The notes below the pieces were generated by a model that ran no database searches, had not been told where the DNA came from, and saw only the letters and a program-made list of their open reading frames with translations. From Octopus vulgaris (Eukaryota), in the NCBI GenBank assembly GCA_951406725.2, contig OX597814.1, positions 78,554,001 to 78,618,000 of the forward strand: DNA of 64,000 nucleotides, read 5' to 3'. A program made the position numbers and the translations under genes. How positions within the stretch are numbered: position 1 is the first letter of the stretch; each line of letters begins with the position of its first letter. Shown in pieces: positions 1,495 to 48,700 of this stretch.

Positions 1495-1878
1495 ATATAA
1501 ATTAGAAATGGAAACCAAAACAATAAATTGAACAATTAAATAAATTTAATCAACAAATGATAAATTCAATTCAATTTAATTATTTTATTCAAACAACTGA
1601 CACATCTCATAAAATACAGCTGTTTCCACTTCATTTATAAAACCAAGTTTTTCAAGAATAATAAAATACCATTTAAATATAATGAGGCTTCATCAGATTG
1701 ACATATCTTCTTAAATATATTTCATAAAAAACTTGGTTTTATTAATGAAGTGGAAACAGCTGTAACTTGAGATATATCATTTGTTTGTATAAAATAATTA
1801 AATTGAATTGAATTTATCATTTAATGATTAAATTATTTCATTTTCAATTTATTGTTTTGGTTTCCATTTCTAATTTAT
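1495..1878. repeat. Foldback (inverted repeat) element, arms about 155 bp
   Basis: ttagaaatggaaaccaaaacaataaattgaa pairs with ttcaatttattgttttggtttccatttctaa. Pairing continues inward to aaaaccaagttttt / aaaaacttggtttt. Confidence 0.85.
1608..1701 (-). ncRNA. Type I hammerhead motif (C3G8) in a foldback element
   Basis: TCAAT-CTGATGA-AGCCTCATT...AATGAAGTG-GAAA-CAGCTG-TA. The opposite arm shows GAAACAGCTGTA-ACTTGA, which restores stem I. Confidence 0.6.
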
Positions 1879-2064
1879 ATATATACATATATATAGATAT
1901 ATATATATAAGCATATATATATATATATATATATATATATATATATATATATATATATATATATATATATATATATATATATATATATATATATATATAT
2001 ATATATATATATATATATATATATATATATAAATATATATATATATGTGTGTGTGTGTGTGTGT
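1876..2064. repeat. (TA)n(TG)n microsatellite
   Basis: Direct inspection. Confidence 0.95.
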
Positions 2065-2141
2065 ATGTATTATTGCTATATATTTGTGTGTATATATGTA
2101 TATGCTTTTGTGCAGGCATATGTGTGTGTGTGTAAATTATA

Positions 2142-2270
2142 AAAAGTCAGGAGGTATGAGAGGTGAATATATTTAAGTACTTAATGTCCATAGGATAATA
2201 AAAACAGCTGTCATCCTATGGACATCAAGTATTTAAATAAATATATTCACCTCTTATACCTCCTGCTTTT
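2142..2270. repeat. Short foldback element at the 5' side of a dispersed repeat (related copy at about 34140-34390)
   Basis: caggaggtatgagaggtgaatatattt...gtccataggat pairs with atcctatggac...aaatatattcacctcttatacctcctg. Confidence 0.75.
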
Positions 2271-43952: not shown

Positions 43953-44260
43953 TCATCTTGATAGAGTAAAAGAAGCGAGAAGGCCTGATTTAGTAGTAGT
44001 AGACAAAGAGAACAGAAAGTGCCAGATAATCGACTTTACAGTCCCCAACGACAGGGAAATCAATATGAGAGATATAGAGAAAATAGCAAAGTACCAGGAC
44101 CATTGAGTTAAAAAGCCCATTGAAAGTGTGGGTAAAATGTATCCTGTAGTTATAGGTGCATTAGGAACTATCCTTAAATATTTGAATAAATGGAGAGAGG
44201 AAATAAGCACAAAACCAAGTTTAGTGCAATTCCAGAAAACAGTCTGATGAGACAGCTAAA
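43953..44260 (+). mobile_element. REL-endonuclease fragment of an R4/Dong-like retrotransposon
   Basis: Plus strand reads ARRPDLVVVDKENRKCQIIDFTVPND....EKIAKYQD and PVVIGALGTI. Confidence 0.75.
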
Positions 44261-46159
44261 ATACTTAGAAAGGTTCTTGGCAGCTAAGGTTACTTGTTGT
44301 AGCCTGATGTCAAGAATTTTTCTTTTCCAACAGTTTAATCTGCTGTGCATGTATAAAATGACAATAATAATAAAATATATATTTGTGTATGTATATATCA
44401 TTGTCATGGCTATCTCTCGAGGCTGAGGTTGATATTCATTGTTTTTTTTTTATATTTTAGTTATTGATGGATAACTGAGTCTATAAGAGGAGCTTACTGT
44501 GATAGCCACAAGATTCTCTGAATCAATATATTTTAGTGTGTGTGTGTGTATTTCTGATTTCACTTAGTCATAGCAATACTAATAACCAGTTGCAAGAGCT
44601 TTAGAGTAAAATGTTATTAGAATACAGAATATAATATCAGTTAATGAATGACACATGAATATGAGTTATGTAAACACCTTTACTAGCTTACAACTGTTTC
44701 TGTTATTGGAATCAGTGCACTCAGAGCTGAATGCTTGTGCAACATCCTAAGTAAAGCTTCCTCCAAAGCCTTACATTAAAACATATAATCCAGATAAATA
44801 AAAAAATCAAAAAAAAAAAAAGAAAAAAGAGTGAAAATAAAGCTACATTGATTGGGTCCTCTGAAACTGAGTAAGAAATGGGGAGGATTAAAAAAAAGTG
44901 AATTCAGAATTCAGAAAAAAATTTAGAAAAGAAGTGAAAAATAAAAGAAAAAGTCATGGTAGCTTTTTTATTTACTTTTTTGCAGAATTATAAGAACCAA
45001 TTTTTAAAGTATAAAATATCCCCCCACCAAAATCTTCTAAACTGAAAAGCGTTTGTTGCACAGCTCTGCAATGACACCATTTTCCTTGTTTGTGATACAA
45101 TGCTACTGACTTCACATATGCCTAATCATTTTGGTTTCATCTCTCTCACACTCGCTTTCTTTTTATATGTATCTAAGTCTATAACTTTGCCTTCACACAC
45201 ACATACACACACACACACACACACACACATATATATATATATATATATATATATATATATATAACAGTTCTGTGAATATTTTTCAGCTTTTATAATAAAG
45301 CATATTACTCTACCCTTAGTACTCAAATACTATTTTTTCCACAGTGTTTTGCACCTATGTGCTTATCTGTGTATACATACAAATATATATATATACATGT
45401 ATACATACATTTATTTTAAAATGTATTACATATGTGTGTGTGTATGCATATATGTATATATGTATGTATTGTCTGTCTTGTGACCATGTGGCTTTTTTGT
45501 TGTATATGTATTTTTTATTTTGTGTTTGCTTTTGTAATTGTTCTGTACACTCATGAGCTATTCCCAAAGGATTTTTGCCACTGGCACCACCATAAGTGAA
45601 CAATATCAACGTTAAAGGCATGAAATAGTAAAGATCTTCTGGAAGTTGACTGTCTGTTGGGTTTTTGTTAAATTTTTGAAATATATATGAATGTGTGTGT
45701 GTGTCTGTGCATACACACATGTGTGTTACAGACTTTGATACATTTATTGTACATAACTTACTATCTACCTGAGGTTTGTCACATATATGATCATTGTCCA
45801 TCAGGCTGTCCCCCTCTCTCTCTCTAAAAATAGTAATGGAAATTATAAGAGTGTTATAGATACATATAATAGAGCGAGAGAGAGGGGGGAAAGACAAAGT
45901 TTCAAGAGAAACTAGAGGAAGAAAAACAGATTAATATCACACTAAGTTAAGCACATTGTGACAATGTATCTTTGCTTCTCCCTTACATTTCAATGTTCTA
46001 TGCTTTTATTTTCTCTCACTGCTATTCATTCAAATTTGTGTTTCTCTTCTCTCCCACTACAACACTTTTTCAACTTTCTATTATTTGTTTTCTTGACAGA
46101 CAGAAGGATGTGGCTAGAGGTGTAGGTCGTCCCTATCTAGACCTCCCTCTATGTTAAGG

Positions 46160-46700
46160 TGTTCTAACTCAAGTTGAGATAATAGGTATATTCCTACTAG
46201 ATCTGTTATTTGGGCAGAGTCTGGGGCATCTATGGGTATATCAAAACAATCCCTAGTGTCTTTCCTAGCCCATAGTTTATTTTTAGGGATTTTAGGGATT
46301 TTCTCGCTGTTAGCACTATTACTTCATCATATGTCATCTTAACCTTTTTCATAGCATACATGAGGGCTTTATTAAGAATAATCTCGTTAATAGATGAATA
46401 ATAATTTTCTATATCCATTTGGATGAACTTGCACTTATTTTTATCTTTGATATTTTTGAACCAATTTAACATATCTCGGGTACAACTTCAAAGTTTAAGG
46501 TTATTTAACGTATTAAGTTTATCTATATATTTATCCAGTATAAGTTTACTGAGTCTTCCTATATTGGACTTACATGGGCATATCAGTCTTCCTTGTGGGT
46601 TAGAATAAAAATTGATTTCATGGTCCTTAAAGGTTATTCTGGGATGCAAAGGGACATATGGTTCTGTTCTATTTTCTAAATCACATTTTGTCATGATTTT
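46160..46700 (-). mobile_element. Penelope-like RT fragment, inverted relative to the adjacent 3' part
   Basis: PRITFKDH..NF..NPQGRLICPCKSNIG and WF.NI.DK..CKFIQMDIENYY.SI motifs of PLE RT. Confidence 0.82.
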
Positions 46701-48700
46701 TTAGATATATTGTTAATATTATTTAATTGAATTTCACTAACTAAATAATCCAAATAAACATGATAAGCATAAATATTATATACCCTTGAAGAACACACTG
46801 ACAACGATGAAAAATAATAATGATAATTACAATAATAGTAATAATAATTATAATAACAATAAAAATAAACATAATAAGGAAATTATATGGCTAATTATCC
46901 CTTATGGGGCCCAAATTAAAACTAATATTATTAAAGAAATTTTGAACATAATAAAAACATCCTTTAAAAAGACCGATACGTACTCAAAAATATTATCCAA
47001 TAAAACTATCAGAGTGGGCTATTCTACAACAAGGAATGTAATATATCCTCAATAAACAATTTCAAATTAAACAAATTTTAAAATAATAATATAACTAATA
47101 TTAACCATAGCTACAGCAGAACTGTCACAAACAATAAACATAACCGTAATTTAAATAAATGTACACGTAAAGACAAATCCAAATGTAGGATTAATAATAA
47201 TTGCAATCTAGATAACATAATTTATAAATGTATAGTAACCTCTAATAATAATAATAATAATAATAATAATAATAATAATAACAATATTAAAAATAAAGAA
47301 TATATTGGATCCACAGTGAAATAAATTAAAAGAAGAATTTCCCAGCATTATCAGTCTTTCAAACATCTTAAATTAAAAAATTCTACAGGTCTAAGTAAAT
47401 ACATATGGGAGTTAAAATGTAATAAGATAGAATACACCCTTAATTGGTATATTATTTGTAGATTGAACTCATAAGATAGGTAAGAAAACGTGCTTTCTAT
47501 GTACAACAGAGTTTATGAAAATACTCCAGCTGAGAGTTATTAATAAACACTAATGAAGAGAGAGGAATAAAATGCCAACATAGGAACAGCTTTAAGTATA
47601 ATAATATGAAAAATATATAAAATAACCCCCACCCCAGCATATCATCTCCACACACTTATGAAGTATATAGTTACTAGAAGTTTTAATACTATTTATAGTA
47701 GTATTATATACATATATACTTTGAACTAAGTATTTATTAAACAATATTACCTTTAAATGAATAATCATACCACATTTATGTAACATAAATCTCAAAATCT
47801 ACAACACTTCAAAATTCCATTTATCACTAGCTTTATGATTATAGCCCCATTCCTAGTTATTATCTCCCCTTAGCTTCAACTTCTCTTATAGTATTATTTT
47901 TAGAGTATTTTTCAGGGTATTTTATTTCATTCTTTTATGTTATACGCAATTCCCATAATACTTAGCGTCTGACAGTGGGAGCAGCCATTTGCTCTTGAAC
48001 TTGCAGGATTAAACCTTACATCATAAAGTAATATACCTTTTTTACTTCTTTTATTCACTAAGTTTCTAACGCAAGTAGTATTTACTAATTAACCTTTATT
48101 CTAGACTACTAACTCACATTTAACATAAAATATGTTATATTATACTAGTACTAACAAAAGTATATTTTACACTAAATTATTATAAGTAATATAATTTCTA
48201 TAATATTCATTTAGATATATTATAAGATTTGATATGTTTCTATTTCAATCATTAAAATTTCCTTTGGTAGAGTATTTTCAATATATATCTTAATTATACT
48301 TTAGATATTTAATATTTTAAAATCTATTAATAGTTTATATATTTAATATAATTTTTAACTTTTAATTTTTAACTTTTACCCATACATAATAATAATATAC
48401 ATAGCCTGAGGATGCACTGGTGGATTTATGTATTAAATATAACCTTAATACACACCCCACTAGTGCAGAAATACGTGTAGCAATTACTTGAACTACCTTC
48501 TTTTCCCACAGATTAATAACAGGTAAGATATATTTATTTAACTAATTTTATTTTATGTTATTTTTATTATTTTATTTTATTTAATTTTCTCTGAGCATAC
48601 CCTACCATAAGGTTATCCTGAAATAGGAGTTGCTTATCTATTGGAAAATATCCCAAATTTGTAGTAATAATAATATTATAAAATATACTTTTCACATTTC
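46700..48700 (+). mobile_element. Penelope-like 3' part: linker, GIY-YIG endonuclease remnant and pLTR with hammerhead motif
   Basis: IIWLIIPYG..IKTNI, NKTIRVGYS and NIIYKC.V...EYIGST..IKRRI.QH..SF.....NSTGLSKYIWELK. Hammerhead at 48401-48484. Confidence 0.82.
48401..48484 (+). ncRNA. Type I hammerhead motif (C3G8) in Penelope pLTR
   Basis: ATAGC-CTGAGGA-TGCACTGGTGG...CCACTAGTGCA-GAAA-TACGTG-TA-GCAAT. Long stem II and near-palindromic stem III. Confidence 0.75.

Follow-up and report, generated by a model that had tools for sequence, protein, structure and literature searches.

In a 64-kb stretch of the Octopus vulgaris genome, rich in (TA)n and repeats (contig OX597814.1, positions 78,554,001 to 78,618,000; hereafter the window, numbered from its first letter), six multicopy repeat families carry the hammerhead ribozyme fold. 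Five of them (A, B, C, E and F) are the 3' ends of Penelope-like elements (PLEs), with type I hammerheads whose stem III is palindromic, and the sixth (D) is a 362-bp repeat resembling a retrozyme. Judging from sequence patterns, we consider it probable that the source elements of these families are cut as strand-swapped dimers and that selection keeps positions 3 and 8 of the catalytic core paired. A preliminary description of the window had reported that unrelated repeats display all three Watson-Crick versions of this pair and had read this covariation as a mark of selection for catalysis; its report was borne out in part, with the corrections given below.

Hammerhead motifs in six repeat families

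All six core types listed in that description were found at their positions in the window, together with a further U3A8 copy of family B at 14759-14795 that was absent from its list. The motifs and the repeats that carry them are the following.

1612-1699 (-): family A hammerhead with core CUGAUGA, C3G8, a long stem II, palindrome ACAGCUGU and A at H17
about 1475-1900: inverted pair of PLE 3' ends around the family A motif, the + arm of which (1679-1786) is without the first core strand
2901-2937 (-): family B minimal hammerhead with core UUGAAAA, U3A8, an extra G after A9, a 5-bp stem II, palindrome AAUU and U at H17
about 2775-3125: family B element around this motif, with a broken inverted copy at 2962-3012
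12328-12372 (-): family C minimal hammerhead with core GUGAACA, G3C8, an extra G, a 7-bp stem I, one stem II mismatch, palindrome AAUAUU and U at H17
about 12225-12390: family C element around this motif
14759-14795 (-): second family B copy, with the U3A8 core whole and stem II decayed
22543-23561: family D retrozyme-like array, with two tandem copies (-) and one inverted copy (+) of the 362-bp unit
22679-22720 (-), 23041-23082 (-) and 23348-23389 (+): family D (22679-23389) canonical 6-bp/4-bp type I hammerheads with core UUGACAA, U3A8 and palindrome ACGCGU
25264-25308 (-) and 25334-25378 (+): two further family C copies (25264-25378) head to head, with GUGAACA, G3C8 cores whole and stem II damaged
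about 25100-25470: inverted pair enclosing both of these family C copies
25873-25959 (-): family E hammerhead with core CUGAUGA and C3G8, G12 being mutated in the window copy; the family majority is intact, with stem II GUAC/GUAC and palindrome ACGAUCGU
48402-48483 (+): family F hammerhead with core CUGAGGA, C3G8, a long stem II and a stem I that is weak in the window copy; the family palindrome is ACACGUGU, with one change in the window copy

The catalytic residues U4, G5, A6, A9, G12, A13, A14, U16.1 and H17 are invariant across families whose stems are unrelated. Families B and C both have an extra base between A9 and 10.1 plus a G10.1-C11.1 pair, and D and E have this pair without the extra base. 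The self-complementary stem III that the preliminary description had pointed out is real, but the palindromes that it quoted for B and C were too long, since they included A13/A14 and the cut-site base.

At least 40 genome matches were scored for each family, and a majority sequence was derived from the top 25-30 BLAST loci of each, a set that is biased towards similarity to the window copy. All six majority sequences retain stem I, NUGANNA, stem II, GAAA, the palindrome and UH together with a Watson-Crick 3-8 pair, and they restore defects of the window copies such as the G12 change of family E. The motifs had been rightly read as hammerheads. Fold and Watson-Crick pair were both kept in most of these loci (A, 24/25; B, 23/25; C, 30/30; D, 25/25; E, 22/25; F, 22/25).

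We then compared the frequency of such motifs with chance, using a strict descriptor that left positions 3 and 8 free. It matched 4 times in the window, where 200 block dinucleotide shuffles averaged 0.08 (maximum 2), and 21 times in a genome sample of 80 regularly spaced 10-kb stretches (800 kb, or 0.03% of the 2.8-Gb genome, which makes density figures rough), compared with a mean of 1.65 (maximum 8) in 40 block shuffles. Seven decoy cores gave 0-1 strict-scan matches each. The 21 matches comprised 11 C3G8 (7 from one tandem array), 4 U3A8, 2 G3C8 and 4 non-Watson-Crick cases, so that 17 of 21 real matches had a Watson-Crick 3-8 pair compared with 19 of 66 shuffled ones (Fisher p=3e-5, a value overstated by the seven matches from one array). 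That the motifs are chance matches in AT-rich, palindrome-rich repeat DNA has practically no probability left: although some single loose-scan matches are weak and shuffles once reached 8, the enrichment over shuffles and decoys, the intact stems of the majority sequences and reversed-pattern controls with 0-5 matches against thousands refute this explanation for the six families.

Searches with Rfam returned no hammerhead match for the window at gathering score and none among the matches listed (150 of 235) at E<=10; family D and the young family C motif gave no hammerhead match at E<=10 either. Rfam models would likely not cover a short stem III or altered cores.

Penelope-like elements and a retrozyme-like repeat

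Using tblastn, we found two broken open reading frames (ORFs) of PLEs resembling the Hydra clade in the window.

26287-27619 (+): C-terminus of the reverse transcriptase (RT), linker and GIY-YIG, head to head with the family E copy
46126-47456: RT part inverted at 46126-46679 (-), linker and GIY-YIG at 46879-47456 (+), upstream of family F

Both match a 955-residue frame with the RWR, DKT and CxCX5C motifs, which are described as marks of the PLE Hydra clade (PMC8557442); Pfam and PDB searches with the Hydra-like protein gave no match. Near-intact Hydra-like elements carry a long-stem-II hammerhead about 2 kb downstream, with the same palindrome ACAGCUGU as family A. Families A and E are linked to Hydra-like ORF pieces by inverted adjacency only, at 2/19 and 2/20 loci, respectively, and for family F the ORF lies on the same strand both in the window and at locus L149.

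In families B and C, the motif lies about 670 nt (B, locus L326) or about 1,000 nt (C, locus L329) downstream of the end of a PLE ORF, and a same-strand GIY-YIG match or ORF ending about 0.6-1.0 kb upstream of the motif was found at 7/20 B loci and 8/25 young C loci. These ORFs have a YVDD motif, a CX3CxxC linker and GIY-YIG at the C-terminus; PF01541 scored above its cut-off at locus L306, and RVT_1 reached only E=0.008, below its cut-off. An overlap between the motif and a protein-coding frame found no support, the ORF stopping 0.6-1.0 kb upstream and the element ending about 160 nt downstream. The B and C proteins are 54% identical over 674 aligned residues, and the two motifs can be aligned, stem II containing one compensated pair; the families with U3A8 and G3C8 are therefore sisters. 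Calling the families unrelated goes too far for B and C, and also for D, which has a C3G8 relative (see below). Copies are truncated at their 5' ends, frequently lie head to head in pairs and terminate in (TA)n, as reported for PLEs, and no upstream same-strand pseudo-long terminal repeat (pLTR) was found for B or C elements among 20 extended loci.

In the near-full ORF of the G3C8 family at L329:4422-6938, RT motifs A and B lie about 125 residues apart, which is long for a PLE with a C-terminal endonuclease, and the ORF has more than 130 relatives in the protein collection, most of them without a name. In addition, the starts of family C copies cluster around AG|ATG, at 14-28 nt upstream of the core in 37 of 89 copies (window 12385-12400; L019, L023, L167, L269, L329:7900-7943). 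In longer copies, a CTAAC resembling a branch point and a run of pyrimidines precede this site, and its five letters are the reverse complement of the 3' tail of the element. The cluster reflects either a splice junction or a microhomology hot spot for inversions. Copy starts within 2 nt of the predicted cut site were seen in 0/89 C, 1/93 B and 0/49 D copies, counts that carry little weight either way since the loci had been picked for spanning the motif.

The anatomy of family D fits a retrozyme of the kind without long terminal repeats (non-LTR retrozyme). Its 362-bp unit has no ORF, 64% of its bases are paired when it is folded as a circle, and its hammerhead has stems I and II of 6 bp and 4 bp, respectively, plus an extended distal stem (fold z=-3.9). 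The lowest-energy fold predicted for the tandem is a strand-swapped double hammerhead, at -192.5 kcal/mol versus -187.3 kcal/mol for two monomers; a cofold of D also yields the double hammerhead, but unconstrained cofolds of B and C do not. Copies of D are mostly dispersed monomers, dimers and inverted pairs. The D profile also recovered a C3G8 tandem family with compensated stems (locus L156, E=6e-4) and a second U3A8 family (L233). Most of the D unit is represented in contigs assembled from four runs presumed to be RNA, and in one contig the end of the unit is joined to its start, which tandem DNA also explains; they were not used as evidence.

The relative of D at L156:2237-4583 is an array of about 359-bp units (five +, two -) with a canonical type I C3G8 hammerhead. 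More U3A8 hammerhead families, with stems unrelated to those of B and D, were observed at L178:8995, L275 and L252:2605.

Genome-wide states of the 3-8 pair

A single pattern designed for the B/C lineage matched the genome 12,168 times (5 times when reversed as a control), and 90% of these matches have a Watson-Crick 3-8 pair: 6,629 G3C8, 4,315 U3A8, 15 C3G8 and 9 A3U8. Among the remaining 1,200 (by subtraction), most fit decay after insertion, for example the 232 C3A8 matches. The claim that all three Watson-Crick versions are present holds for C3G8, U3A8 and G3C8, but four such pairs are possible and the fourth hardly occurs: an A3-U8 family was rejected, since the four loci opened among its 9 genome-wide matches were decayed or duplicated copies of G3C8 families, one of them from the older sister subfamily described below. 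A C3G8 subfamily within B was not separable from mutation, with 15 matches compared with about 8 expected from independent single changes; three of four sampled C3G8 copies in B clearly share the flanks of the U3·G8 subfamily described below, and the fourth does so in part.

The G3C8 state persists in at least three subfamilies, including an older sister with a different N7, loop II and palindrome in which it was found in 31 of 48 cases (and A3U8 in 1). In the youngest G3C8 subfamily, 40/40 scored candidates were identical over 141 bp, indicating that G3C8 elements moved recently. Double changes at 3-8 in homologous backgrounds were traced between B and C (U-A versus G-C) and between D and its relative at L156 (U-A versus C-G). 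These double changes and the persistence of G3C8 likely reflect selection on the pair in the source elements; in the two sister PLE families B and C, the change of both letters of one paired core position is likely due to selection to keep cutting.

Roughly 2 Mb of fetched loci, a set enriched for the families searched for, contain many further hammerhead families, mostly C3G8, and no multi-locus family with convincing stems among them has a mismatched majority 3-8 state. This bears on a different explanation, according to which a founder effect accounts for 3-8 complementarity, drift having fixed the letters in a few source elements and copy number having multiplied them. Such an effect would be compatible with the handful of independent events, with the non-independence of copies and with the existence of a wobble state, but we judge it highly improbable, since in both traced cases both positions changed and ended on a Watson-Crick pair, and since mismatched majorities are missing from these families.

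If the source elements are indeed cut, two motifs would pair through their stem III palindromes to form a double hammerhead, as proposed for similar motifs (PMC4209133, PMC6765202), and cleavage after H17 would trim the precursor RNA to unit length, giving circles for D. The protein of the element itself may aid hammerhead folding: a PLE hammerhead was reported to need it, with partial rescue by the C3G/G8C double mutant (PMC11167929). The 3-8 pair can change by way of a U·G wobble state that is still able to transpose, and most genomic copies would be inert and decaying.

Several observations weigh against cleavage and selection on the pair. The wobble is the first: U3·G8 has 143 matches and is linked to a single loop variant (G8 in 113 matches versus A8 in 79), forming a subfamily of family B (L364-L369, L063, L077) whose sampled copies share diagnostic flanks, with U3 in 6/7. 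It follows that a wobble-pair source spread, on a scale about thirty times smaller than U3A8, and that strict 3-8 pairing is not needed for transposition. Only two independent double changes could be traced in homologous backgrounds; the window copies of A, B and C fold no better than shuffles (z +0.46, -1.59 and -0.44, respectively); in families A and F an A·G or C·A/U-A juxtaposition, with an extra base on each side of stem II, replaces the usual G10.1-C11.1; and the core of family E copies is no better conserved than the flanks (0.932 versus 0.936). Finally, hammerhead mutants of a PLE were reported to insert in vitro without reduction, and none of the RNA reads terminated at the cut site (PMC11167929).

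Together with the wobble subfamily, the in vitro insertion result keeps alive the idea that the folds serve retroelement RNA as structures for protein binding or packaging and are maintained for this, the 3-8 pair shaping the fold and cleavage being negligible or dispensable. Minimal PLE hammerheads were found to be weakly active in vitro (PMC4209133), Naiad PLEs thrive without canonical hammerheads (PMC8557442), and the U3·G8 subfamily was amplified. A purely structural role nevertheless appears unlikely to us, though clearly less so than a founder effect: all catalytic residues are fixed across unrelated stems, 3-8 is an active-site pair, and D-like retrozymes cleave and circularise in other animals (PMC7229834). 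We hence favour cutting of the source elements and selection on their 3-8 pair. The covariation in the preliminary description can accordingly be kept as a probable trace of selection, with the two homologous double changes and the G3C8 subfamilies on its side and the spread of a U3·G8 source against it; its claim that 3-8 is always complementary fits all six majorities and 90% of the B/C matches, but not this subfamily. U3·G8 may have served as an intermediate between C3G8 and U3A8, in either direction. More tentatively, and with the odds rather against it, one PLE lineage with a C3G8/U3·G8 subfamily, a large U3-A8 group and a larger, recently mobile G3-C8 group might represent a natural rewiring of the active-site pair, in which protein assistance freed the core to evolve.

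As for the load of ribozymes, profiles of the six families matched 13 times in the window and 25 times in 800 kb, an about sixfold higher density in the window that owes something to the families having been defined there. Of the 13 window matches, 10 keep both core strands and only 4 pass the strict scan, and the copies at 25261-25381 have a damaged stem II. From the strict scan, the density of intact motifs would be roughly 16-24 per Mb, which amounts to about 45,000-70,000 genome-wide when extrapolated from 0.03% of the genome. Inverted pairs would be expected to fold as long hairpins instead of hammerheads, and, given also the incomplete motifs and the equal decay of core and flanks in family E, most copies are likely inert. 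The ribozyme load consists mostly of decaying, truncated retroelement ends, and extrapolating from the window gives a figure about sixfold too high for the six families.

Elsewhere in the window, positions 7554-9446 (+) hold a 630-codon open frame with a non-LTR reverse transcriptase of the long interspersed nuclear element (LINE) type (RVT_1, E=1.7e-37). A short frame at 51493-51795 (+), without a Pfam match, resembles the C-terminus of a Tc1/mariner-type transposase.

Comparison with known hammerhead systems

The closest known systems are the minimal hammerheads in the pLTRs of metazoan PLEs (Cervera and De la Pena 2014, PMC4209133), for which the minimal motif, the extra base, the palindrome, opposite-strand pairs, U3-A8 and low dimer activity were described. 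The octopus motifs share with them the type I topology, the palindromic remnant of stem III, the extra base between 9 and 10.1 (here in B and C), G10.1-C11.1 (here in B, C, D and E), the many families per genome, mostly as single truncated copies, the opposite-strand pairs and the U3-A8 variant (about 1,300 matches in Schistosoma). They differ in that families A, E and F have 40-60-nt stem II extensions and 8-nt palindromes, in that a U3·G8 subfamily links states within one lineage, and in the G3-C8 state, which the accessible part of that article does not mention. The PLE hammerheads with short stem III of Lunse, Weinberg and Breaker, as cited in PMC6765202, are likewise palindromic and associated with PLEs, with predicted dimer cleavage.

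Family D resembles animal non-LTR retrozymes (Cervera and De la Pena 2020, PMC7229834; Li et al., bioRxiv 10.64898/2026.07.22.740005) in its tandem unit, within their 170-400 bp, its canonical 6-bp/4-bp type I hammerhead, its lack of an ORF and its high degree of pairing; it differs in having a U3-A8 instead of a C3-G8 core, in its mostly dispersed copies and in being known here from DNA. Regarding the proteins, the ORFs beside A, E and F are similar to those of the Hydra PLE clade (Craig et al. 2021, PMC8557442) in their RWR, DKT and CxCX5C motifs. Those of B and C are similar to the Neptune and Nematis clades of the same study, in a comparison of motifs, in the C-terminal GIY-YIG, the CX3CxxC linker and the (TA)n flanks, but motifs A and B of their RT are separated by a long stretch.

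Among variants of the core pair, natural U3-A8 has been reported (Perreault et al. 2011, PMC3088659), a U3/G8 core bearing an insertion has been mentioned as occurring naturally (PMC7151607), and G3-C8 was partly active as the laboratory double mutant C3G/G8C, including in a PLE hammerhead (PMC11167929, PMC8495972). The literature searched gave only such laboratory mutants for G3-C8, with Lunse et al. (RNA Biol 14:1499), Przybilski and Hammann 2007 and one supplement of PMC4209133 outside its coverage. In the present genome, a family that moved recently has G3-C8 as its natural state, with 6,629 exact pattern matches.

Searches fixed on CUGANGA miss, as had been anticipated, at least 10,944 motifs in the O. 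vulgaris genome (exact matches with a pair other than C3G8). A natural series of core states (U3-A8, G3-C8, U3·G8, C3-G8) in homologous elements of very different copy number could serve to relate cutting rate to transposition success. If the natural G3-C8 and U3·G8 RNAs cut poorly alone and well with the protein of their element, the lineage would be a ready-made series for testing PLE hammerhead function. With most copies likely inert and the class, the extra base after A9, the opposite-strand pairs and U3-A8 already published, the gain lies in a variant and in a system for tests rather than in a new kind of system.

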